A DNA stretch of 34,646 bases. Origin: Nitrospinota bacterium (GTDB taxonomy: Bacteria > UBA8248). This document shows, piece after piece, positions 1-15,309 of this stretch. Every line of letters starts with the position of its first letter. Within the stretch, counting starts at the first letter, position 1. The stretch is from the NCBI GenBank assembly GCA_046581755.1, contig JAYGFR010000232.1:1-34646 (forward strand). Reading direction: 5' to 3'. The notes below the pieces were generated by a model. It had not been told where the DNA came from. It was given only the letters and a program-made list of their open reading frames with translations, and did no database searches. The translations under genes and the position numbers were made by a program.

Positions 1-127
1 ACGCGGCTTCCGTTAGATGGCCAGTGTGGTTGCCGATGTGAAGTTCATCGATGGAGTAGACGAGAGAGAGACGGGCAGGAAGGCCGCTTGATTCAGGACG
101 GCCATACACCAGATTTGACGGTAGCTC
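1..127 (+). mobile_element. Right end of an IS256-family-like insertion sequence: transposase C-terminal remnant plus terminal inverted repeat
   Basis: Frame 2 reads RGFR*MASVVADVKFIDGVDERETGRKAA* (stop 89-91), which resembles the IS256-type transposase C-terminus (..RGF..LA.V..GVKF.DG..AA*). It is followed by TACACCAGATTTGACGGTAGCTC ending at 127, the style of right end I recall for this group. The internal TAG at 14-16 suggests decay. The left part is outside the window. Confidence 0.65.
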
Positions 128-142
128 TAGTTCGATTAGAAT
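115..142 (+). promoter_or_regulatory. Putative sigma70 hybrid promoter TTGACG-16nt-TAGAAT
   Basis: The -35 (115-120) lies inside the putative IS end, the -10 (137-142) lies outside it, and the promoter points into the selenoprotein operon. Confidence 0.5.
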
Positions 143-207
143 GGGGACAAATTCTAAGGACAGGCGAATTTCGACCTCCCCGAACAACCTCGCACAGGAG
201 GGTGGAC

Positions 208-762
208 ATGACCGAGATGACGAAGGAAAAAGAAAAAATTCTCGTGTACGAACCCGTGGCGGAGGCTTCAGGCGCAAACGCAGCCTTGTCCGCGCGGCCC
301 GAGAGCCTAAACGGCAAGAGCGTCGGCCTCATCAACAACACCAAGGATTTCACCGATGAGATTTTAGGCGTAATGGGAGCCGAGCTTCAAAAACAGTTTC
401 CCGGCGTGCGCGTCGTGCGCTACAGGAAAGAATCCGTGAGCGGCGCATCTCAGGCTCTCATGGAACAAGTGGAAAGAGAGTGCGACGCGGTCGTCTGCGC
501 CCTGGGCGACTGAGGCTCGTGCACGTCGTGGAGTATCCACGACAGCGTCGCCTTAGAGAAAAGAGGACTGCCCACGGCCACGGTCGTCACCGACGCCTTC
601 GAGACCTACGCCAGGCAACTCACCAAGCTGCACAAGATGCGCGAGCTTCCCCTCGTCACCCTTCCCCACCCCATAGCGGGCAGAAAGCGCGAGGAGGTGG
701 ATGAGATGTCGGAAAGAGCGAGCACGCATCTGGCGGCGGCCCTCACACGGGCGAACGGCTGA
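208..762 (+). CDS. UGSC-family selenoprotein (184 aa, Sec at codon 102, UxxC motif)
   Basis: AGGAGG RBS at 196-201 and ATG at 208. The in-frame TGA at 511-513 sits in DAVVCALGD-U-GSCTSWSIHDS. The frame stays open for another 82 codons (..LEKRGLPTATVVTDAF..LPHPIAG..) to TGA 760-762. A SECIS-like hairpin follows the UGA. Confidence 0.88.
525..543 (+). promoter_or_regulatory. Bacterial SECIS-like hairpin
   Basis: Perfect 8-bp stem GTCGTGGA/TCCACGAC with a GTA loop, starting 11 nt after the UGA. The apical loop begins with G followed by U. Confidence 0.8.
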
Positions 763-769
763 TATCGGC

Positions 770-1870
770 ATGGACACACCCCGTCCCGCCCGCCAGATAG
801 CGCTCGATGAAGACCCGGGCGCGATATTCGATCACTTCTACGAGGAGGGCTGGACGGACGGGCTGCCCATCATCCCGCCGACCGAGGAGCGCGTCGCAGA
901 AACCCTGCGCTTCACGGACTATGCGCCGCACGACGTGATCGCCAATGTCCCGCCCAGAAACGCGCCTGCCACGGTGGAGGGCATCGCCATCAACGCCGTG
1001 ATGGCGGGCTGTAGGCCTGAATATCTGCCCGTGCTCATCGCCGCCGTGCAGGCCATGACGGAGCCCGCCTACAACCTCTACGGCCGCCAGACGACCACCC
1101 ACCCGGGCGCGCACTTGATGATCGTCCACGGGCCGGTGCGAAACGAACTCGAGGTAAACTGCCGCCAGAACGTGTTCGGCCAGGGCCGGCGCGCCAACGC
1201 GACGCTGGGGCGCGCGGTGAGGCTCTTGATGATGAACGTGGGCGGCGGCATCCCCGGCGTGACGGACATGGCCACCCACGGGCATCCGGGAAAATACTCC
1301 TACACCATCGGCGAGGACGAGGAGGGAAGCCCCTGGCCGCCCTTCCATGTCGACAGGGGTTTGTCGCCCGAGACTTCCGCCGTCACCATGCTCTGCGCCG
1401 AGGCGCCCCACAACGTCAACGATCTCGTGAGCAAGACGGCCCACAAATACCTGGGCACCGCCGCTTCGGCCATGAGCCACCTGGGCGCGAACGGCGTCTA
1501 CCGAAGCGGGCTGCCGAGCGAGCAGATGCTCGTCCTGACCGCCGAGGCCGCCACCTGGTTGTCAAATCAAGGGTGGTCGAAAGCCGACGTATCCCAGTAC
1601 ATCTTCGAGACGGCGCGCCAGCCGATTCGCCTGATGCGCGATCGCGGCGGCTTCGACATGACGCCGCTCGCCCCTTTCGTGAACCTCGATGAGGATGAGG
1701 ACATGGCCCCCATAGTCCCGAGGCCGAAGGATATCCTCATCGTCATCGCCGGCGGCCACGGCCGCCACATGAAGGCCGTCCTCACGGCGAGCTACAACCT
1801 GAGCGTCACCAAAGCGATCACGCGCAAAGACGGAACGCCCATCGGCTCGGTGAGGGAGTTCGTGGAGTGA
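770..1870 (+). CDS. Uncharacterised conserved protein (GWTDGLPIIPPT / AINAVMAGC family), partner of the UGSC protein, 366 aa
   Basis: ATG at 770 lies 7 nt after the selenoprotein stop. Motifs GWTDGLPIIPPTEERV, IAINAVMAGCRPEY, RANATLGRA and GHPGKY are recognisable from a family I recall next to or fused with UGSC proteins. Confidence 0.85.
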   Translation: MDTPRPARQIALDEDPGAIFDHFYEEGWTDGLPIIPPTEERVAETLRFTDYAPHDVIANVPPRNAPATVEGIAINAVMAGCRPEYLPVLIAAVQAMTEPAYNLYGRQTTTHPGAHLMIVHGPVRNELEVNCRQNVFGQGRRANATLGRAVRLLMMNVGGGIPGVTDMATHGHPGKYSYTIGEDEEGSPWPPFHVDRGLSPETSAVTMLCAEAPHNVNDLVSKTAHKYLGTAASAMSHLGANGVYRSGLPSEQMLVLTAEAATWLSNQGWSKADVSQYIFETARQPIRLMRDRGGFDMTPLAPFVNLDEDEDMAPIVPRPKDILIVIAGGHGRHMKAVLTASYNLSVTKAITRKDGTPIGSVREFVE

Positions 1871-1933
1871 GGGGATTACCTGAAATCGAAAGATTAAAAC
1901 AGATATGCTTATAAACCAAGGATATACAAGTAA

Positions 1934-2045
1934 CTATGAGTCCTTGGTGGATCTCTTGCTATACCCATAACCACCAGCAAATCCAACCCCTAAACCTCCT
2001 AAACCCGTCAATACTGGCATTATGAGTTCTTTCGCCCCGAATATT
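1934..2045 (-). pseudogene. Possible 3' remnant of a low-GC membrane-protein gene
   Basis: It ends in a hydrophobic, Gly-rich segment LIMPVLTGLGGLGVGFAGGYGY followed by a basic tail. No convincing start or RBS; AT-rich context. Confidence 0.3.
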
Positions 2046-2200
2046 AAACTGGAATTATGCGGCAACGCTCTCCTTTTAGCAAAATACGGCCTAATTTTCT
2101 TCCTCTGCGGTGCCTCCCGCCAAGAAGTCCATAAAGTCCGAAAAAAGATACCCTCTTGAGTGCCCCTTCCATCCAAATCCACCGTGAATAAAGGGTTTTT

Positions 2201-2620
2201 TCCATTAATCAGAGTGGAGGACAGACAGCCCACTCCATAACAAACGTATCACCACCAAGGCGAAATCTCTTAAACTCGACGCGGCAACAGATGGTTCAAT
2301 ATTTGTCTCAGAATCAAAAGGGCACTGTCGGATTTGCCTCAACTCAAGGGGATGTTGAGGCACACCAATGGAAGGAGCAGTTGATGTCTGTTTTTGCAGA
2401 AGCTGGCTGGAAGGTGCAGGACTGCAAGACATTCATGTTCTTTGGAGAAAAAGATGGATTTGTCGTTACGATTCCTTTCAATACCTCAATTACAACTGGA
2501 TTACCTCAAGTCACCGTTCAAGCACTAAATATGACAGGAAATCCAATCTCGTGGAATGAGGGGGATATGGCAAACGAGGTAGGCATTTACGTGCAGGTTT
2601 GGCACGCTCCACAGGATTAA
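2201..2620 (+). pseudogene. Low-GC hypothetical gene, probably 5'-truncated (ATG 2291 gives 109 aa)
   Basis: The frame is open upstream of ATG 2291 back to a TAA at 2189 (SINQSGGQTAHSITNVSPPRRNLLNSTRQQM..) and looks protein-like but has no start. Its composition is unlike the host genes. Confidence 0.45.
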
Positions 2621-2652
2621 AATCGATAGCGAACAAGAGTACCCCCATATCC

Positions 2653-2732
2653 TTACACCATCACCTTCTCCCCCCCGCAGATCCCGGCGAACCTTCTTCA
2701 AAATCTCTAGCCCCCGCGCGCTCCTTCCCTCG
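2653..2732 (-). pseudogene. Diverged duplicate of the hisH 3' end (RGLEILK/RFAGIC-GGEKVMV*) with a 1-nt insertion
   Basis: 2677-2716 encodes the same 13 residues as hisH 3535-3573 once one extra A is removed. There are 9 differences in 39 nt, all synonymous. Confidence 0.8.
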
Positions 2733-2735
2733 TTT

Positions 2736-3020
2736 CTATTTGGGCAATTCGATGCCCAGTTCCCGGGCGGCGTCCTCAAGCGTGATGGCCTTTTCGTTGC
2801 TACCCTCGAAATCGGCGAGGGCGGCCTCGGCGGAGCGCAAATCCTCGGCATCCTCCAGCTCTTCCAAAGCCTCCGCAGCTTCCACCGGAACAAGATAAGC
2901 GATCACCTCTCCCCGGCGGGTGATGCCCACCCGCTCCTTGCCATAGCTGACGCGGTTAATTACATCCGAAAAATTCTGGCGCGCCTCTCTCGTGCTTACG
3001 GTCGTCGCGGTCGTTTTCAT
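2736..3020 (-). CDS. Type II antitoxin, Phd/YefM family
   Basis: N-terminal VSTREARQNFSDVINRV..ERVGITRRG is the Phd fold signature, followed by an acidic C-terminus. RBS GGAGAGG. Confidence 0.9.
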   Translation of the reverse strand: MKTTATTVSTREARQNFSDVINRVSYGKERVGITRRGEVIAYLVPVEAAEALEELEDAEDLRSAEAALADFEGSNEKAITLEDAARELGIELPK

Positions 3021-3080
3021 ATCCCTCTCCTGGCGTTACCTCGCCTTATTCGTGCCGGGCATACGCCGCCAAGTATTTCC

Positions 3081-3344
3081 CTATTTCCGGTACGCGCTCC
3101 CCCGGGTGGCGATTTCAATTACCAGCACTCTGAGTTCGCCCCGGTCCACTTCGTAGCTTATGCGGTAATTATCAAACACCCGAATTCGCCAGATGTTTTT
3201 CATTCCGGAAAGCTTTTTGCTCCGGGGAGGCGTCGGCTCGTCCGCCAATGCCCGAATTGCCATCAACAGCTTCTGCTGATCTGCTTTTCGAAATTTCCTT
3301 AACGCTTTCATCGCCGATGGAATGATATAGACCGTGTATTCCAT
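3081..3344 (-). CDS. Type II toxin, RelE/ParE family
   Basis: 87 aa and basic, with MEYTVYI.PSA.KAL, KKLSG...WRIRV.NYRI.YEV and R..AYR, typical of RelE. Confidence 0.9.
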   Translation of the reverse strand: MEYTVYIIPSAMKALRKFRKADQQKLLMAIRALADEPTPPRSKKLSGMKNIWRIRVFDNYRISYEVDRGELRVLVIEIATRGSAYRK

Positions 3345-3385
3345 CGTACAAATATAATCTTATGTACTTTTATATTCAAGTGTAC
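3345..3385 (-). promoter_or_regulatory. TA promoter TTGAAT-17nt-TATATT with three GTAC operator-like cores
   Basis: -35 at 3379-3374 and -10 at 3356-3351, with only 6 nt before the toxin ATG. GTAC occurs at 3346, 3364 and 3382 (18-bp period). Confidence 0.7.
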
Positions 3386-3507
3386 CGATATCTTACAAAG
3401 CCCCGACCAGCGTGTACATCTTCAACAAATTGGATTTAAAGGGGTTTAATCAGGTTGAAACACTGACAGAGCGCGCTATGGGCCAAAAAAGTACGATTCG
3501 CTAGCCG

Positions 3508-4176
3508 CTAGGGGGCCGCCGGAGCGGTCTCGCGGCAGATCCCCGCGAAGCGCTTGAGGATTTCGAGCCCGCGCGAGCCGCTTTTTTCGGGGTGGAACTG
3601 GGTGGCGAAGAGGCGGTCCTTGCGGACGCTGGCGATGAAGGGGACGCCGTAGGAGCAGGTGGCTGCGATATAGGGGCGGCAGGCGTCCGACAATTCGGCA
3701 TAGTAGGAGTGGACAAAATAGAAGTGCTGTCCCTCAATTCCGCCGTCCAGGAGCGGCGATGGGTTTTCGAGACAAATTTCGTTCCAGCCCATATGGGGAA
3801 TGCGGATGTCCCGGCTCCGGCCTTCCTCGCGCGCACCCTGGGGAAACTTGAGGATGCGGCCGGGTAAGAGGCCGAGGCCGGGCGTTGCGCCAAATTCCTC
3901 GCTGGCCTCGAAGAGAACCTGGAGGCCCAGGCAAATGCCCAGATAGGGCACCCCGCGCGCGATGGCCTCTTTGATCGGATCGGACAGCCCGGCGGCGTTA
4001 AGAGCGTTCATGCACTCGGGAAATCCGCCCACACCGGGGAGGATGATGCCGGACGCCCCGGCGATATCCGCGGGGTCGCCCGAAAGGCGCGAGGCCGCGC
4101 CGATGCTCCCCAGCCCGTTGGCGACGCTCCTGACGTTGCCCATCCCGTAATCGACGACGACGATGGGGGCTCCCAT
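3508..4176 (-). CDS. hisH: Imidazole glycerol phosphate synthase glutaminase subunit
   Basis: VDYGMGN, LPGVG, LGICLG, PHMGWN, YFVHSYY and QFHPEKS motifs. Confidence 0.97.
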   Translation of the reverse strand: MGAPIVVVDYGMGNVRSVANGLGSIGAASRLSGDPADIAGASGIILPGVGGFPECMNALNAAGLSDPIKEAIARGVPYLGICLGLQVLFEASEEFGATPGLGLLPGRILKFPQGAREEGRSRDIRIPHMGWNEICLENPSPLLDGGIEGQHFYFVHSYYAELSDACRPYIAATCSYGVPFIASVRKDRLFATQFHPEKSGSRGLEILKRFAGICRETAPAAP

Positions 4177-4249
4177 CTCATCTCCCGAAGGTGTTTGAAA
4201 GACTGAAGGAGGGCCCGGCGATACTCGCGCGGTCTCCCGCCGGCCCCGG

Positions 4250-4852
4250 CTAGAGTACGCCCTTGGTGCTGGGAACCCCCGTCTCGCGCAGATCGATGGC
4301 GGCGGCGGCCCGAAGCGCGCGCGAGAAGCCTTTGAAGACGGCTTCGGTCATGTGGTGGCTATTCTCGCCGTAGGCGATCTCGATGTGGAGGTCGATGCCC
4401 GCCTGGGTCGCCAGCGACCAGAAAAACTCGCGCACGAGAGCCGTATCGAACGCGCCGATTCGGGCCTCGGGGAAGCTTCCGCGGAAAACGAGGTTCCCCC
4501 GCCCGCCGGCGTCCAGCGCCACCAGGGCGAGTGCGTCCATCATCGGGAGGCGCACGTTCGAATAGCGGGCGATCCCCGCGCGGTCGCCCAGCGCCTTGGC
4601 GAGGGTCTGGCCCAGGAGGATACCCACGTCCTCGACGGTGTGGTGGCCGTCCACTTCAAGGTCGCCCTTGCCCCGGACACTCAGATCGACGAGGCCGTGC
4701 CGGGCGATCTGGCCCAGCATGTGGTCGAAAAATTCCAGGCCCGTGCGCACATCTGCTTTTCCGCTTCCGTCCAGATCGAGGGAAACCGTGAAATCCGTCT
4801 CCTTGGTCTTCCGGCTCGATTGGGCTTTGCGGCCCTGCATTTTCGCCGCCAC
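4250..4852 (-). CDS. hisB: Imidazoleglycerol-phosphate dehydratase
   Basis: RKTKET, FFDHML, DGHHTVED, NSHHMTEA and PSTKGVL motifs. Confidence 0.97.
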   Translation of the reverse strand: MAAKMQGRKAQSSRKTKETDFTVSLDLDGSGKADVRTGLEFFDHMLGQIARHGLVDLSVRGKGDLEVDGHHTVEDVGILLGQTLAKALGDRAGIARYSNVRLPMMDALALVALDAGGRGNLVFRGSFPEARIGAFDTALVREFFWSLATQAGIDLHIEIAYGENSHHMTEAVFKGFSRALRAAAAIDLRETGVPSTKGVL

Positions 4853-4965
4853 GGCGGGTCTCCTCGATAAGATTCAACTATTTACGGGCATCGGCACACC
4901 AGCCCGTGAAAATTGCGCGCCAATATATTCGATTGGGTCGCCGGGCGCCAGAGGGGGCGGAAGAG

Positions 4966-6267
4966 TTAGCGGGCCAAATCCCCCGAGCGCAGCCTCAGCG
5001 AGCGCGCATGGGCGGGAAAACCTTCCAGGTCGGCCAGCGCCGCCGCCGGCCCGGTCAAGCGGGCGGCCGCTTCCGGACCCAGCTCGGTCACGCTCGACCA
5101 CTTGAAAAAATCGAGAACCCCCAGGGGCGAGGCAAATCGCGCCGCCCCGCCCGTCGGAAGGATGTGGTTCGGACCGGCGAGATAGTCCCCGAAAGGCGCC
5201 GCGCTCCACGGGCCACAGAGTATGGCCCCCGCATTGCGGATCCCGGCGGCCGCCTCGCCGGGACGTTCGACCATGAGTTCGAGATGCTCGGGAGCCAGGC
5301 GCTCGGCCACCTCCAGGGCCTCCTCGCGGGCGGCCACCTCGACGATGGCCCCTTGGGACTTTAGCGCATCGGAGATGATCTCCCGCCTCGTGGCGGTGGC
5401 CACCTGGCGCTCCACCTCGGCTTCGAGCCGGTCGGCCACCTCAGAGCCCACCGCCACGCCCACGGCCATGGCCGTGGGATCATGCTCCGCCTGGGCGAGC
5501 AGGTCGGCGGCGGCCCATTCGGCCCGTCCCGGATCGTCCAGAACCACGACCACCTCGCTCGGCCCCGCGTCCTTGTCCACGTCGGCCACGTCGCGGACGA
5601 GGCGCTTGGCCGCCGCGACGAAGATGTTCCCGGGCCCCACGATTTTGTCCACCTTCGCGATGGTGGGCGTCCCGTAGGCCATCGCCGCAATCGCCTGGGC
5701 GCCGCCCGCCCGGAATACGTGCTTGACGCCGGTCAGCGCGGCCGCCGCCAGAACGGATCGGGCAATCTCCCCCTCGCGGTTCGGGGGCGAGCACATGACG
5801 ATTTCCTCGACCCCGGCCGCCTTGGCGGGAATGGCGCTCATGAGAACCGTCGAAGGGTACGCGGCCCTGCCCCCGGGCACATAGAGGCCCACCCGCTTGA
5901 GCGGAATCGGGCGAAGGGCAAACCGCTCGCCCGGCATGGGCGCGAACTCGATAATTTCGGGAAGGCAAACCTCGTGAAAGGCGCGAATGCGGTCCGCCGC
6001 CAGCGAAAGCGCATCGCGGACATCCGGGGTCAGCGATTCCAGCGCCTCTTGCATCTCCCGCTCCGGAACGGGAACCTTCTCCGGGCTCAAGTCCACGAAA
6101 TCGAAGGTTTTCGTATATTCCCGCAGGGCGGTGTCGCCGTGTTGGCGCACGTTGTCGAGGATGGGGCGAACCCTCTCCTCGGCGCTCTTGAACATCGTCT
6201 CGCCCGCGAACGGAAGCGCATCCAGCTCGGCCGCCGCATTCACATCGCCCCACCGAATCCGCTTCAT
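4966..6267 (-). CDS. hisD: Histidinol dehydrogenase
   Basis: YVPGGRA.YPS, GPGN.FV, AGPSE, QAEHD, APEHLE and AGPNH.LPT motifs. ATG 6267 overlaps the hisG stop. Confidence 0.97.
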   Translation of the reverse strand: MKRIRWGDVNAAAELDALPFAGETMFKSAEERVRPILDNVRQHGDTALREYTKTFDFVDLSPEKVPVPEREMQEALESLTPDVRDALSLAADRIRAFHEVCLPEIIEFAPMPGERFALRPIPLKRVGLYVPGGRAAYPSTVLMSAIPAKAAGVEEIVMCSPPNREGEIARSVLAAAALTGVKHVFRAGGAQAIAAMAYGTPTIAKVDKIVGPGNIFVAAAKRLVRDVADVDKDAGPSEVVVVLDDPGRAEWAAADLLAQAEHDPTAMAVGVAVGSEVADRLEAEVERQVATATRREIISDALKSQGAIVEVAAREEALEVAERLAPEHLELMVERPGEAAAGIRNAGAILCGPWSAAPFGDYLAGPNHILPTGGAARFASPLGVLDFFKWSSVTELGPEAAARLTGPAAALADLEGFPAHARSLRLRSGDLAR

Positions 6268-6941
6268 ATCCGATCCTTCGGTTTTTCGGGCCTGCAAACT
6301 TTTTTGAGCAAAGAGACGAACCGGCTCACTCGATCATGCTTGGTTTTCAGGCTCGCCCGGTTGACGATGAGTCGGGCGGTGGCGCTGAAAATCTCTCGGA
6401 TGGGGACCAGCCCGTTCGCATCGAGCGTTCCCCCCGTATCCACCAGATCGACAACGGCGTCCGCCACCCCCGCCGCTGGCGCGATCTCGACGTTTCCGTA
6501 GAGCCGGATCGTTTGTGCCTGAATTCCCTGGTCCTCGAAATAGCGTGCGGCGATTCCGGGAAATTTGGTGGCCACGCGGACGCCCATCTGCCTGGAAAGC
6601 GCCTCCCAGGTCACTCCCTCCGGGACGGCGACCATCAGACGGCAGCGCGCGAAATGAAGGTCGAGCGGCTCATATACCTCCGGGCCCTGTTCGAGGAGCA
6701 CGTCCTTTCCGATGACGCCCAGGTCCGCCGCCCCGCGCTCGACATAGGTGGGAACGTCGTAGTTGCGAAGAATCAGCACCCGGAGGGCGGTTTTTTTATC
6801 TTCATGGATGAGCAGGCGCGATTTATCCGAGATGGCCTTGGAGAGAAGTCCCGCCTCCAGCAGGCGCTCCACCGCCGTGGTGAAAATCCTTCCCTTCGGA
6901 AGGGCCAGCGTCAAGCCGGCGGAGGCATTGTTTTCGCTCAT
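6264..6941 (-). CDS. hisG: ATP phosphoribosyltransferase, short form (HisZ-dependent)
   Basis: ALPKGR, DVPTYVE.G.ADLG, VATKF and DLVDTGGTL motifs. 225 aa, with no C-terminal regulatory domain. Confidence 0.96.
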   Translation of the reverse strand: MSENNASAGLTLALPKGRIFTTAVERLLEAGLLSKAISDKSRLLIHEDKKTALRVLILRNYDVPTYVERGAADLGVIGKDVLLEQGPEVYEPLDLHFARCRLMVAVPEGVTWEALSRQMGVRVATKFPGIAARYFEDQGIQAQTIRLYGNVEIAPAAGVADAVVDLVDTGGTLDANGLVPIREIFSATARLIVNRASLKTKHDRVSRFVSLLKKVCRPEKPKDRI

Positions 6942-8194
6942 TCGCTCACCCGTTCGATTTCCGCGCCCAGCGTCCGCAGACGCTCCTCGATTCTCTCGTA
7001 GCCCCGGTCGATGTGGTACACCCGCCGGACTATCGTATCACCTTTTGCGGCCAAACCGGCGAGCACCAGGGATGCGCTCGCGCGCAGGTCCGTGGCCATG
7101 ACGTGCGCCCCCGTTAGGGATTCCACACCGATGACATGAGCCGTCCGGCCGTCGATCGAGATGTTCGCGCCCATCCGGATGAGTTCGGCCGCGTGCATGA
7201 AGCGGTTCTCGAAAATCGTCTCGGTGATGGCGCAGGCCCCCCCGGACAGGGTCATCAGGGTCATGAATTGCGCCTGGAGGTCAGTCGGAAAACCGGGATA
7301 CGCCGCTGTCTTGACGCTGACCGGCTTGAGGGGGCCGTTCGCGTGAACGCGCACCCAATCGTTACCCTCGGTGACCTCGAGCCCCGCATCCCGAAGCCGG
7401 AGCGTCAGCGCCCGGACGTGCTCTGGAATGCAGCGGTGAATCGTGACGTCCCCGCCGGTGATGGCTCCCGCGATCATGAAGGTCCCTGTCTCGATCCGGT
7501 CCGGCGGAACGCTCACGTCGAACCCGCCGAGCCGATCGACGCCCTCGATTTCGATAATCGGCGTCCCCGCGCCCCGAACCTGCCCGCCCATCTGGTTCAG
7601 CAGATCGGCGAGCATGGCCACCTCGGGCTCCTGAGCGGCGTTTTCCAGGGTCGTCGTCCCCTCAGCGAGCGCCGCCGCCATCATCAGGTTTTTCGTTCCC
7701 GTCACCGTCACCAAGTCGAACAATATGCGGGCGCCCTTGAGCCGCTTGGCCCGCGCGCCGATGTAGCCATCCTTCAGTTCAATTTCGGCTCCCATGGCTT
7801 CGAGGCCCTTGAGGTGCTGATCGATGGGGCGCGCGCCAATGGCGCACCCCCCCGGAAGGGAGACATCGGCTTCGCCGAAGCGCGTCAGCAGGGGACCCAG
7901 CACCATGACCGATGCCCGCATCGTCCGCACCAAATCGTAAGGGGCGGTGCCGGAGTGGGCATGAGCGGTATCGATGGAGATTTCCCGCGGGGTGATCCGT
8001 TCGCACCGGATACCAAATTCCGCAAGAAGCCCGAGGAAGGTTTCGGTGTCGCGCAAGTTCGGCACCCGCCGAATCCGGCAGGGACCATCCGCCAACAGAG
8101 AGGCCGCCAGAATCGGGAGTGTGGCGTTCTTCGAACCCGTCGCCTCGACGCCTCCGCGCAGGGCCTTGCCGCCGTGAATGCGGAATTGATCCAT
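6938..8194 (-). CDS. murA: UDP-N-acetylglucosamine 1-carboxyvinyltransferase
   Basis: GSKNA.LP, MRAS, LPGGCAIGARP (catalytic Cys), PGFPTD.Q, DLRA and RGYE motifs. Confidence 0.98.
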   Translation of the reverse strand: MDQFRIHGGKALRGGVEATGSKNATLPILAASLLADGPCRIRRVPNLRDTETFLGLLAEFGIRCERITPREISIDTAHAHSGTAPYDLVRTMRASVMVLGPLLTRFGEADVSLPGGCAIGARPIDQHLKGLEAMGAEIELKDGYIGARAKRLKGARILFDLVTVTGTKNLMMAAALAEGTTTLENAAQEPEVAMLADLLNQMGGQVRGAGTPIIEIEGVDRLGGFDVSVPPDRIETGTFMIAGAITGGDVTIHRCIPEHVRALTLRLRDAGLEVTEGNDWVRVHANGPLKPVSVKTAAYPGFPTDLQAQFMTLMTLSGGACAITETIFENRFMHAAELIRMGANISIDGRTAHVIGVESLTGAHVMATDLRASASLVLAGLAAKGDTIVRRVYHIDRGYERIEERLRTLGAEIERVSE

Positions 8195-8197
8195 GCC

Positions 8198-9088
8198 CTA
8201 GACGGTTTCCGTTTCGATGACACGCTCGCGGCAGGCCAGATCGCGGCGGATTCTCGGCTCTCCGAATGCGCGGCTCAGGCGCATTTGATCGCGGCACGGG
8301 AGAATTTGCTCCGGGTCCATTTCCAGGATGAGCAGCCCTCCCCTCTTCAGGCGGGAAGGGGCGCCAATGATGATACGGCGCAACAAGCACATGCCGTCCG
8401 GCCCTCCGTCCAGGGCCTCCCGCGGCTCAAAACGCGCCACCTCGGGCATGAGCCCGCCGATTCGGCCGGATGCGATATAGGGCGGATTCGAGAGGAGGGC
8501 ATCGAAAAGCCTCTCATCCGGAAGGCCTTCGAATAAATTCGAGCGGACGGCCTCGAAGCGGCTCTCCACCCCATTGCGGCGCGCATTCTCCCGGGCGAGG
8601 CGCAGGGCGGTCTCGCTGATGTCCGCCGCCACGATGCGGGCGCCTGGCAGCTCTTTCGCGAGCGCCACTCCGATCGCCCCGCTCCCTGTGCAAAGGTCGA
8701 AAATCCGGGGAGATTCCGCATCGCCCAGAAGGGCGGCGGCCCGCTCGACGAGAAGCTCGGTTTCGGGCCTCGGGATGAGGCAGCCGGGCGCCGCCCGGAA
8801 GGGGAGCGACCAGAACTCCCGCTCTCCCACGATATAGGCAAGCGGCTCTCGATTTTCCCGCCTCAGCGCCGCCTCGGACAACGCGGCCCGTGCGCCGGGC
8901 GGGATCGGGTCTTCGGCATGAGACAGAAGATAAGAGCGATCGCAATTCAGCGCCCAGCAAAGCAGCGCATGGGCATCGGAGCCAGCGTCCTCGACTCCCG
9001 CCTCGGCGAAGCGGCGCCTCAGGCGTTGGGCTTCATGGCCCAGGGAACCCTCAGGCCAACGGGCCGGCACCGGCGGGGTGCTTTTCAC
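8198..9088 (-). CDS. prmC: Release factor glutamine methyltransferase
   Basis: EPLAYI.G, LIPRPETE, DLCTGSG and SNPPY motifs; directly downstream of prfA. Confidence 0.96.
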   Translation of the reverse strand: MKSTPPVPARWPEGSLGHEAQRLRRRFAEAGVEDAGSDAHALLCWALNCDRSYLLSHAEDPIPPGARAALSEAALRRENREPLAYIVGEREFWSLPFRAAPGCLIPRPETELLVERAAALLGDAESPRIFDLCTGSGAIGVALAKELPGARIVAADISETALRLARENARRNGVESRFEAVRSNLFEGLPDERLFDALLSNPPYIASGRIGGLMPEVARFEPREALDGGPDGMCLLRRIIIGAPSRLKRGGLLILEMDPEQILPCRDQMRLSRAFGEPRIRRDLACRERVIETETV

Positions 9089-10176
9089 TTTGCGTCCTTC
9101 TCGCCGGGGTCCGAATCGAACTCCGCAAGGCGCTCCGCCTCGCGGCTCTCGAGCACGCGCCTGAGCATCTCCTCAATCTCTCCTTCGAGAAATTTGTCGA
9201 GGCTGTGCTGGGTATGGCCGATGCGGTGGTCGGTCACCCGGTCTTGGGGAAAGTTATAGGTTCGGATGCGGTCGCTCCGGTCCCCCGAGCCGATCTGGCT
9301 CTTGCGCTCGGCGGAGCGTGCTTCGTTCTGGGTGCGGATTTTCAGGTCGAGAAGATGGGACATGAGAATTTTCAATGCCTTGGCCTTGTTCTTGTGCTGG
9401 CTCTTTTCATCCTGGCAGGTGACGACGATTCCGGTCGGCAGGTGGGTAACGCGGACGGCGGAGTCGGTCGTATTCACGCTCTGGCCGCCCGGCCCCGAAG
9501 ATCGGTAGACATCGAACCGCAAATCGTTTTCATCGAGGTTCACCTCGATCTCGTCGGCTTCGGGAAGGATAGCCACCGTGGCCGCCGAGGTGTGGATGCG
9601 TCCCTGGCTTTCGGTGACGGGAACCCGCTGGACCCGGTGGGTGCCGCTCTCAAATTTGAGGCGGCTGTAGGCGCCCATGCCCTTAATCAGCGCGGCGACC
9701 TCCTTGATGCCGCCCAGGTTGTTCTCGTTCCGGTTCAGCTCCTCGACGCCCCACCCCTGGGCCTCGGCGTAGCGCGCATACATCCGGTAGAGGTCCGAAG
9801 CGAACAGGGCGGCCTCGTTTCCGCCGGTTCCGGCGCGAATCTCGATGATGACGTTTTTATGGTCGTTGGGATCTTTGGGGAGCATCAACCGCCGCAGACG
9901 AAGCTCCAACTCGGAGAGTTCGGCTTCGCGCGCCTCGGCCTCTTCCTTGGCCAATTCGCGGATATCGGCGTCCGAATCGTTTAAGAGGGTGCGGGCCTCT
10001 TCAAGAGACTCGCTGCACGCGCGCCATTCCCCGAAGGCTCCGACGATCCGCGATATTTCCTTGTGCTCGCGGGCCGTCTGTTCGAATTTTTTGCGGTCCT
10101 TGACCAATCGGGGATCGGAAAGGCGCTCCTCGAGGACTTTGTGCTTCTCGATAATCAGGTCGAGTTTTTCGAACAT
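9085..10176 (-). CDS. prfA: Peptide chain release factor 1
   Basis: EIRAGTGG.EA, PVT anticodon motif, GPGGQSVN and RIRTYNFPQ. Confidence 0.98.
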   Translation of the reverse strand: MFEKLDLIIEKHKVLEERLSDPRLVKDRKKFEQTAREHKEISRIVGAFGEWRACSESLEEARTLLNDSDADIRELAKEEAEAREAELSELELRLRRLMLPKDPNDHKNVIIEIRAGTGGNEAALFASDLYRMYARYAEAQGWGVEELNRNENNLGGIKEVAALIKGMGAYSRLKFESGTHRVQRVPVTESQGRIHTSAATVAILPEADEIEVNLDENDLRFDVYRSSGPGGQSVNTTDSAVRVTHLPTGIVVTCQDEKSQHKNKAKALKILMSHLLDLKIRTQNEARSAERKSQIGSGDRSDRIRTYNFPQDRVTDHRIGHTQHSLDKFLEGEIEEMLRRVLESREAERLAEFDSDPGEKDAK

Positions 10177-10270
10177 AACAATGAGGCTCCAGCCCCGCGG
10201 GAAGCGGAAGAGCCGCCGGCGCTCCTAGGTGGGGGCGTTCCGGATTCAGCCTCATTTCGAGAGGAGAAAC

Positions 10271-10786
10271 TCAGGACGTCTCGGCATCTCCGGAGAATGC
10301 CTGCGCCTCGGGCGCGGGCTCGGTTTCCGCTTCCGGCGGCGTCTCGGGCGATTTCGTTTCGGTCTCTGGCGCGGCTACCTGCGCTGCTCTCGAATCGGCA
10401 ACGGTCTTTTCCTCGGCTTCCCGGGTGGCCCTCAAGGCTACCTGCTCCTCGCGGCGGCGAATTCTGGCCTCCTCGCGGGCCGTCTTTTCATCGATGGCTT
10501 TTTGCTTCTCGCGCTCTTCCTGTGCGGCGGTTTCAGCCACGCGCGTCGCGATTCTCCGTTTCCGCTTGGATACGCGCGTTTGCTGGTCTTGGAATTTTTT
10601 GACGAATTTCTCAACGCGCCCTTCGGTGTCGATGATTCGGGACTGCTTGCCGGTATAGAAGGGATGGCAGTTGGAGCAAATCTCGATGCGAAACGACTCC
10701 CGGGTCGAATGGGTCTTGAATTCGGTCTGGCATCCGCTGCATACCACGGTCGTTTCATACAGTTCGGGATGAATATCGGCTTTCAT
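10271..10786 (-). CDS. rpmE: 50S ribosomal protein L31 (Zn-binding type) with a ~100-aa C-terminal extension
   Basis: [21 protein letters not shown] and DTEGRVEKF motifs. ATG 10786 has an AAGGAG RBS. Confidence 0.93.
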
Positions 10787-15234: not shown

Positions 15235-15309
15235 TGGAGCGGGCGATGGGATTCGAACCCACGACGTCCAGCTTGGGAAGCTGGCACTCTACCACTGAGT
15301 TACGCCCGC
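15235..15309 (-). tRNA. tRNA-Gly (anticodon CCC)
   Basis: GCGGGCG acceptor stem, CCAGC-TTCCCAA-GCTGG anticodon arm, GGTTCGAATCC T-arm and encoded CCA; 75 nt. Confidence 0.97.

Follow-up and report, generated by a model that had tools for sequence, protein, structure and literature searches.

The stretch of DNA analysed here (the window) comprises 34,646 nucleotides of a Nitrospinota bacterium and corresponds to an entire contig (C337) of an assembly consisting of 400 contigs and 4.22 Mb. Close to its first nucleotide the window carries, on the plus strand, two closely spaced genes, here called gene A and gene B, which encode a 184-residue protein with an in-frame TGA codon and a 366-residue "partner" domain, respectively. 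Gene A codes for a genuine selenoprotein of the UGSC family, and UGSC proteins and the partner domain are associated, as seen from their adjacency, phyletic pattern and frequent fusion; the two products are likely to be the halves of a two-part reductase. The features of the locus are the following.

115..142, plus strand: promoter-like site, TTGACG-16 nt-TAGAAT, about 65 nt 5' of gene A (consensus scan, 10 of 12 matches)
166..1868, plus strand: conserved two-gene block (blastn against the orthologous locus L027)
196..201, plus strand: Shine-Dalgarno-like AGGAGG, 6 nt 5' of the ATG of gene A (read from the sequence)
208..762, plus strand: gene A, UGSC-family selenoprotein of 184 residues, W-type, U-G-S-C-T-S-W (translation with TGA read as U; family models)
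511..513, plus strand: in-frame TGA, selenocysteine U102 (translation; same site in the paralogs)
520..522, plus strand: codon of Cys105 of gene A (U102-G-S-C105 motif)
525..543, plus strand: SECIS-like hairpin (selenocysteine insertion sequence), 8-bp stem GUCGUGGA/UCCACGAC, loop GUA, beginning 11 nt past the TGA (single-sequence fold)
770..1870, plus strand: gene B, 366-residue partner domain ("Unknown_1"; translation, no curated family)
1010..1012, plus strand: codon of Cys81 of gene B, motif MAGC (Cys in 98 of 101 partner sequences)

Because the window is the whole contig, the bases upstream of its position 1 are unreadable, and the promoter-like site is weak evidence only, because it lies outside the block common to L027.

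The selenocysteine codon of gene A

Gene A starts with the ATG at 208 and terminates with the TGA at 760-762, the single in-frame TGA being that at 511-513. When this codon is read as selenocysteine (Sec), as proposed in the initial annotation, the product contains the motif CDAVVCALGD-U-GSCTSWSIHD...LEKRGLPT...LPHPIAG and is recognized, with matches that span the TGA, by both Pfam PF24696 UGSC (163 bits, cut-off 25) and NCBIfam NF041046 "UGSC family (seleno)protein" (144.4 bits, cut-off 125). The same genome contains eight UGSC copies, all of which have exactly one TGA and have it at the same position, and all full-length UGSC matches listed in 27 related genomes, namely those covering nearly the whole 172-position profile, have the same TGA. 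Among 66 UGSC hits of at least 120 profile positions, found in loci fetched from other genomes as described below, 60 have TGA, three have Cys and three lack the motif, so that Sec is retained in 60 of the 63 hits having a readable motif; in an alignment of 73 UGSC sequences the U/C position is kept in 73 and Cys105 in 70. In one fusion protein (P0163) the UGSC part reads CGAS, the second Cys being gone.

The SECIS-like hairpin is present in all eight paralogs of the genome and contains one compensatory pair, G-C in four of them and C-G in the other four, that couples the Trp/Cys codon of the motif to a synonymous change three codons further on. Its single-sequence folding energy is unremarkable (z only -1.7) and no SECIS family of Rfam was matched in the window at the gathering score. 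As to the machinery for Sec insertion, the genome encodes tRNA-Sec (RF01852, 73.8 bits; gathering score 47), selB (TIGR00475, 374.7 bits; cut-off 242) and selA (TIGR00474, 569.8 bits; cut-off 268). The scores of the family hidden Markov models, the eight conserved TGA codons, the covariation within the hairpin and the presence of this machinery indicate that the TGA at 511-513 is not a chance stop. That this TGA is a genuine stop or a fault of the assembly, the frame past it being a chance continuation, is favored by nothing more than the normal meaning of TGA and the z of the hairpin and is extremely unlikely in view of PF24696 and NF041046 scoring across it, its recurrence in the eight own copies and in 60 of 66 hits elsewhere, the covarying stem and the tRNA-Sec, selA and selB genes.

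Association of the UGSC and partner genes

Gene B starts with the ATG at 770, after a spacer of 7 nt, and terminates with the TGA at 1868-1870. The tight coupling of the two genes noted in the initial annotation is matched by their conservation as a unit: when positions 1-8000 of the window were compared by blastn with L027, the closest ortholog locus, whose partner protein is 92% identical and which lies on a 2.97-Mb contig, only 166-1868 matched (L027 7399-9099, 87.6% nucleotide identity). The flanks of L027, which hold a PIN toxin gene on the upstream side and a phage terminase gene on the downstream side, are unrelated to those of the window, so that the two genes behave as a block complete in itself.

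Within its own genome, in which 16 partner matches and eight UGSC genes were found, all eight UGSC genes are near partner paralogs; seven of them are adjacent or fused, and the eighth (on contig C167) is separated by 2.6 kb from several partner paralogs arranged in tandem. On contig C97 UGSC and partner, in this order, form one frame of 535 codons (535 aa) with a single TGA. The survey was extended to 78 loci fetched, with up to 8 kb on each side, by means of the partner alignment from contigs of one genome per species; these loci span Betaproteobacteria, Methylomirabilota/Rokubacteria, Binatia, Chloroflexota, Actinomycetota, Acidobacteriota and Poribacteria, a Bacillaceae isolate and the archaea Nitrosocosmicus and Natrialba. 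Among the carriers of the pair are Robertmurraya sp. (L070) and, with the Cys form, Natrialba asiatica (L077) and Sphingomonas sp. (L080). A same-strand UGSC hit is present in 63 of the 78 loci, and 61 of the 66 UGSC hits lie at a distance of 250 nt or less from a partner hit. Among 41 related genomes, which are non-independent samples, UGSC and partner both occur in the same 27 and are both absent from the same 14. Thus, the two families co-occur across genomes as the initial annotation had anticipated, and their fusions are frequent.

Fusions were met at several levels of the survey. In the fetched loci an in-frame extension of 89-116 residues, starting directly after a TGA, was seen in about 13 of 88 partner hits; a PF24696 domain is present in six of 36 longer partner relatives (>641 residues); and, among the top 150 of 5277 partner representatives, about 57 are N-terminally extended, with UGSC found in 20 of the 24 scanned (the post-Sec tail only in 9 of 12, the whole domain in 11 of 12). 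Natural fusions in Cys form, such as P0180, also exist. The 244-residue "extension" of the L032 partner is a mere open frame in high-GC DNA and was rejected as a fusion. Many of the partner matches listed in the relatives G001-G025 contain one internal TAG, TGA or TAA; these internal stops are probably, for the most part, boundaries between tandem genes.

The order of the two genes depends on the type of UGSC protein. With W-type UGSC (UGSCxxW, with Trp six residues past Sec) the order is UGSC-then-partner in 30 cases and the reverse in two, and with C-type UGSC (UxxCxxC) it is partner-then-UGSC in 21 cases and the reverse in one (gaps of 300 nt or less in both instances); likewise, in the genome under study UGSC comes first in each of the four W-type copies and the partner in each of the four C-type copies. 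The pair of the window is W-type and consists of stand-alone genes. The W-type is the type that fuses, and its Trp codon, which is a Cys codon in the C-type, sits in the covarying pair of the hairpin.

Two loci have a different layout. C167 (array at L021:11238-15604, minus strand; UGSC at 8125-8652, minus strand) and L092 (array at 3123-6274; UGSC at 10170-10694) contain three or four tandem partner paralogs (HAVMAGC) and one distal C-type UGSC, followed by an enoyl-CoA hydratase gene; in C167 a molybdenum subunit of the xanthine dehydrogenase family lies between the partner array and UGSC. These arrays may represent a hetero-oligomer or a multi-substrate locus. In a Betaproteobacteria-type locus (L053:1948-3867, plus strand) a selB gene (GTP_EFTU and SelB beta-barrel domains) is found directly 3' of a UGSC-partner pair.

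The other genes identified in the window are all on the minus strand and comprise hisHBDG, murA, prmC, prfA, rpmE, rho, gcvPHT, three beta-oxidation-type genes, rluD, ileS and trpS. In agreement with the initial annotation, no grd or trx gene was found among the 27 other open reading frames (ORFs) of the window by NCBIfam at E <= 1e-20. The sole Rfam match of the window at the gathering score is a tRNA gene (15238-15309, minus strand; RF00005, 71 bits). The pair, having a G+C content of 62-68%, is parted from the remaining window by a 45%-GC stretch (about 1870-2700), and the interval 1870-3350 contains two small minus-strand ORFs (2736-3020 and 3081-3344), for which NCBIfam gave nothing at 1e-20 and which we take to resemble a Phd/YefM-type antitoxin and a RelE/ParE-type toxin. 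On account of these presumed toxin-antitoxin ORFs and of the PIN toxin and phage terminase genes of L027, the pair is seen to sit among mobile-looking DNA in both places.

Elsewhere in the genome the UGSC and partner genes have as neighbors genes for a MarR regulator together with a class III CoA-transferase, for an enoyl-CoA hydratase, for an EamA exporter, for a flavoprotein of the fumarate reductase type together with class I fumarase-like genes, and for an FAD oxidoreductase together with an ABC importer. In other genomes 146 same-strand neighboring ORFs were tallied, four very long ORFs being left out; they include luciferase-like oxidoreductases (11 ORFs in eight loci), ECH_1 (four), TctC (five in three loci), SDR (four), acyl-CoA dehydrogenases (three), CoA_transf_3 (two), MmgE/PrpD (two), LarA (two) and SelB (once), and no constant third gene was found among them. 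These neighbors act in the catabolism of organic acids and of CoA esters, a context that counts in favor of the function proposed below.

Relatives and predicted folds of the two proteins

The initial annotation had regarded the pair as an undescribed system. This claim does not hold, since UGSC is a named family (PF24696, NF041046) and the UGSC/"Unknown_1" fusion has been in print since 2008 (PMC2398784); the pair is therefore known, as a sequence observation. In that survey Zhang and Gladyshev (PLoS Genet 2008; PMC2398784) counted the "UGSC-containing protein", with 255 Sec and 21 Cys forms, among the most abundant selenoproteins of the GOS data set, reported its fusion to Unknown_1 and suggested a thioredoxin-like fold for UGSC. 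In their Fig. S1A the Cys of Unknown_1 is highlighted and the alignment reads AVNGVMAGCRPEYMP...; gene B, which reads AINAVMAGCRPEYLP, matches by eye the motif A(V/I)N(A/G)VMAGC-PEY-P of that figure. Thus, gene A, by passing PF24696 and NF041046, and gene B, by having AVMAGC-PEY-P, appear to be the same two partners, the highlighted Cys of Unknown_1 being Cys81 of gene B (PMC2398784); they differ from the published fusion in that the genes of the window are separate and in that the model of gene A is a flavodoxin/Rossmann-like three-layer alpha/beta domain. No function is given for UGSC in the accessible parts of the 2008 paper (PMC2398784) and of a 2022 review, and UGSC is still described as uncharacterised in the accessible part of a 2026 review (PMC13188914); a full-text literature search, the scope of which did not include subscription-only papers, found no functional study of UGSC.

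The AlphaFold2 model of gene A (predicted local distance difference test score, pLDDT, 89.4; predicted template-modeling score, pTM, 0.83) is a five-strand parallel alpha/beta domain in which U102 is placed between strand 94-100 and helix 103-118. Foldseek and VIA-align matched it to hundreds of flavodoxin-, receiver-, B12-binding- and Rossmann-like domains, the best matches having E 4.6e-5 and template-modeling (TM) scores of 0.43-0.52 with the former and Z 9.6-11.8 with the latter, and no thioredoxin-fold chain was among the matches listed by either tool. The thioredoxin-like fold suggested in 2008 is thus not borne out by the predicted structure. When the UGSC profile was compared by sequence with the PDB, only a chance match was obtained (SdhA, E 0.13).

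A relationship of the Sec region to that of the GrdB/PrdB subunits of glycine and proline reductase, which the initial annotation had perceived by eye, could be put to a test because the genome itself encodes two GrdB-like selenoproteins, on contigs C60 (L105:1501-2781, plus strand) and C256 (L106:1234-2541, minus strand), scoring 440 and 406 bits with PF07355. Each of the two genes is preceded by a GrdE-like gene (PF09338), and the motif of the C60 protein is ILTST-U-GTSTRSG...LEKAGIPVV. The Sec motifs of the two proteins, U-G-T-S-T and U-G-T-G-T, are without the Cys of the canonical UxxC, and their relatives in other genomes have the canonical UGTCTRCG. In a pairwise BLASTP comparison residues 84-128 of gene A align with residues 329-373 of the GrdB-like protein, Sec on Sec, with E 0.001. 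The comparison by hhalign of the eight UGSC with the two GrdB-like sequences gave a probability of 38%, and that of 73 UGSC with 31 GrdB-like sequences gave 94.6% with E 6.9e-8 over 84 columns, UGSC 91-181 being aligned with GrdB-like 338-426, again Sec on Sec and with PHP on HHP. Of the controls, partner versus GrdB-like and partner versus UGSC both gave 0.3%, and partner versus GrdE-like gave 0.07%. TIGR04483 PrdB matches gene A weakly and in the same register (11.5 bits, cut-off 300), and PF07355 does not match it at E <= 1; since the PF07355 model ends just before the Sec, it is blind to the common module. On these alignments the Sec module of UGSC and the Sec module at the C terminus of GrdB-like proteins are judged to be homologous, as the eye had suggested.

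The likeness extends over strand, U-G-(S/T)-x-T, helix, E-x-x-G-(I/L/V)-P, strand and P-H-P/H-H-P, as in GrdB, GrdF, GrdH and PrdB, and the C-type UGSC copies also share the UxxCxxC spacing with canonical GrdB-like sequences. The two-gene layout, a large-subunit gene beside a Sec-subunit gene, is likewise that of Grd/Prd. On the other hand, UGSC has only 184 residues and is without the GrdB body, the partner of the window is not of the PF09338 type and there are no grdA/C/D genes nearby. The genomic distribution differs as well, GrdB-like proteins being present in five of seven genomes of family f4, which has no UGSC. Neither GrdB nor PrdB could be found by sequence in the PDB copy, the profile of the two GrdB-like proteins of the genome having as its best match an unrelated protein (E 0.13).

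The partner family is very large: of 8000 candidates scored, 7754 clusters at 90% identity matched at E <= 1e-3, and a search of representatives at 50% identity gave 5277 at the same threshold. Gene B itself matches no Pfam or NCBIfam family, PF09338 included, and has no relative by sequence in the PDB (best E 0.12, aldehyde dehydrogenases); its motifs include AVMAGC, THGHPGKY and GGHGRH. In an alignment of 101 partner sequences N143, R148, E182 and W189 are invariant, D30 is kept in 100, Cys81 in 98 and R141 in 95, and several Gly and Pro residues are also well kept. The conserved Cys foreseen by the initial annotation is therefore real, whereas the His-rich motifs to which it drew attention are subfamily features, H170 being found in 23, H330 in 12 and H333 in 68 of the 101 sequences. 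Cys81 is replaced by Ile, Gly or Ala in a few partner domains, namely that of the fusion protein P0192 and those of the own paralogs on contigs C14 and C74; C14, C74 and L045, where Cys81 is missing, are all at contig ends and are too few to be related to the absence of UGSC.

In the model of gene B (pLDDT 85.8, pTM 0.87) Cys81 is placed in a turn between helix 69-79 and helix 83-96. Reactive thiols are usually located just before a helix, and both U102 and Cys81 occupy such a place in the two confident models. A search of the ESM Atlas for the partner returned only its own family. Class I fumarase, PurM-like proteins, Toblerone-fold hydrolases, pieces of encapsulin and chorismate mutase, all of which came up in Foldseek or VIA-align below noise, were rejected as relatives of gene B. 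The partner was also considered as the missing N-terminal body of GrdB and as a homologue of GrdE/PrdA, and both possibilities were rejected, in the first case on account of the hhalign probability of 0.3% given above and in the second because the comparison with 28 GrdE-like sequences gave 0.07%.

Candidate function of the pair and its alternatives

The function that we propose for genes A and B, with a probability of about 0.5, is that of a two-part reductase operating by a Sec/Cys relay driven by a thioredoxin-type system. A small (anionic) substrate, probably one with a carboxylate, would be bound by the partner at a site to which the invariant or nearly invariant D30, N143, R148, E182 and W189 would belong, with Cys81 at a helix start; the U102 selenol, alone or relayed via Cys81, would perform the redox chemistry, Cys105 would resolve U102 to a selenenylsulfide and a thioredoxin-type system would re-reduce the latter. 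The physical contact between the two proteins, the residues that meet, the type of reaction and the substrate, which probably differs between paralogs, are what we infer.

The redox side of this proposal is suggested by the fusions of the partner. A Pyr_redox_2 (thioredoxin-reductase-like) domain is present in 12 of the 36 partner relatives longer than 641 residues and an AhpC/TSA domain in one of them; P0134 contains a partner domain that is 45% identical to gene B (residues 20-334) and, after it, Pyr_redox_2 (residues 363-639). In addition, three of 11 extended ORFs of the fetched loci have an N-terminal AhpC/TSA-Redoxin domain, and two of these three loci (L084 and L104) have no UGSC within 8 kb. 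Taken together, the near-constant partner, the GrdB-type Sec module and the thioredoxin-reductase-like and redoxin fusions of the partner yield a hypothesis of an enzyme that can be expressed and assayed. By way of analogy, such a pair would work like thioredoxin-dependent arsenate reductase ArsC and the methionine sulfoxide reductases, which are thioredoxin-coupled multi-cysteine relay reductases, in having a Cys or Sec at a helix start, a resolving Cys at +3 and regeneration by thioredoxin and thioredoxin reductase; it would differ from them in that the relay is split over two proteins and uses Sec, and no sequence or fold relation to them was found, the domains listed by Foldseek and VIA-align being of a generic flavodoxin-like kind.

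Several observations weigh against the two-part reductase. There is no reductant gene in the window, and the block common to L027 holds two genes only; the families of neighboring genes are heterogeneous, and part of the tally, including much of the luciferase-like count, is common Dehalococcoidia synteny. The homology with GrdB covers only about 84 columns and is silent on the substrate, and neither structure nor sequence comparison yields a relative of the partner from which a reaction could be read: with the model of gene B Foldseek gave nothing at E <= 1e-3 (best E 0.02) and VIA-align, over 48,161 chains, gave a best Z of 5.8, which is under the tool's stated noise level. Cys81 is missing in three of the 101 partners, and P0192, a natural fusion of 563 residues, has MAGI in its place, fused to a UGSC domain of the CGSC type. 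Furthermore, partners outnumber UGSC genes in the genome by 16 to 8, and 15 of the 78 fetched loci have no UGSC within up to 8 kb on each side (two of these 15 have the partner at a contig end); 14 of the 15 match the MAGC pattern or its MAGA variant and 13 of these keep the Cys.

The excess of partners is among the points that speak for the main rival explanation, ranked above the two that follow, according to which UGSC serves only to carry electrons, as a dedicated shuttle of the thioredoxin or GrdA kind by which Cys81, once oxidised to a sulfenate, disulfide or persulfide, would be reduced again, so that the partner would be the whole enzyme, for instance one resembling a peroxidase or a sulfoxide or disulfide reductase, and the Sec would never touch the substrate. 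The arrays of three or four partners with one distal UGSC (C167, L092), the 15 loci in which the partner stands without UGSC, the AhpC/TSA-Redoxin domains carried instead by L084 and L104, as if donors were interchangeable, and the thioredoxin-reductase-like fusions all point in the same direction. Against these stand the sole detectable relatives of the Sec module, the GrdB-like proteins; in D-proline and glycine reductases the Sec is taken to attack the substrate itself. Retention of Sec in 60 of 63 readable motifs would also be costly for a mere shuttle, though selenoprotein thioredoxins exist. With these arguments on either side, the shuttle is a serious contender, albeit a rather unlikely one.

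Distinctly improbable is a third possibility, that Cys81, U102 and Cys105, with the additional Cys in the UxxCxxC copies, ligate a metal or iron-sulfur cluster at the interface of a non-redox lyase or hydratase for organic acids. The organic-acid gene context would fit such an activity, as would the weak fold hits repeatedly obtained for the partner model, namely with class I fumarate hydratase (6uqn, E 0.02; 7xky, Z 4.6 over 183 residues), with L-serine dehydratase (4rqo) and with CyuA (9fsl). All of these hits, however, are under the noise level of the tool (Z under 7-8), the W-type pair of the window offers only three candidate ligands, and the thioredoxin-reductase-like and redoxin fusions indicate cycling of thiols and selenols, not a static cluster. 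We know of no Sec-ligated iron-sulfur hydro-lyase.

The least favored of these functional alternatives, to which we concede very little likelihood, makes the partner a functional analogue of GrdE/PrdA, which form a pyruvoyl group from a Cys: self-cleavage at Gly80-Cys81 would generate a pyruvoyl that binds an amine, and UGSC would act as PrdB in a reductive C-N cleavage. The GrdB-type Sec module, the near-invariant Cys and the identical two-gene layout of the canonical GrdE-like/GrdB-like pairs of the genome would suit it, but the 0.07% obtained with GrdE-like sequences does not, nor do the partners without Cys81; moreover, self-processing sites are typically in a strand-turn setting, whereas Cys81 is predicted to lie in a turn between two helices.

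As for its significance, the pair of the window is one more stand-alone W-type instance of a known sequence pairing. The partner family, with its 5277 representatives, is very large; since it has neither a curated model nor a solved relative, its structure would probably contribute a new fold or active site. A bolder generalization, which we put forward tentatively and consider doubtful, would be that UGSC and partner constitute a family of selenium enzymes, very large and spread across phyla, in ordinary aerobic heterotrophs, a pyruvoyl-free cousin of the Stickland reductases in which a GrdB-type Sec module is set on a substrate-binding domain without a solved fold relative and is driven by thioredoxin or by a dedicated thioredoxin-reductase-like flavoprotein, the many paralogs (eight Sec copies in this genome) reductively cleaving or reducing different substrates of the carboxylic acid type. 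It is the function of this very abundant selenoprotein and of its fold-orphan partner that merits experiment.

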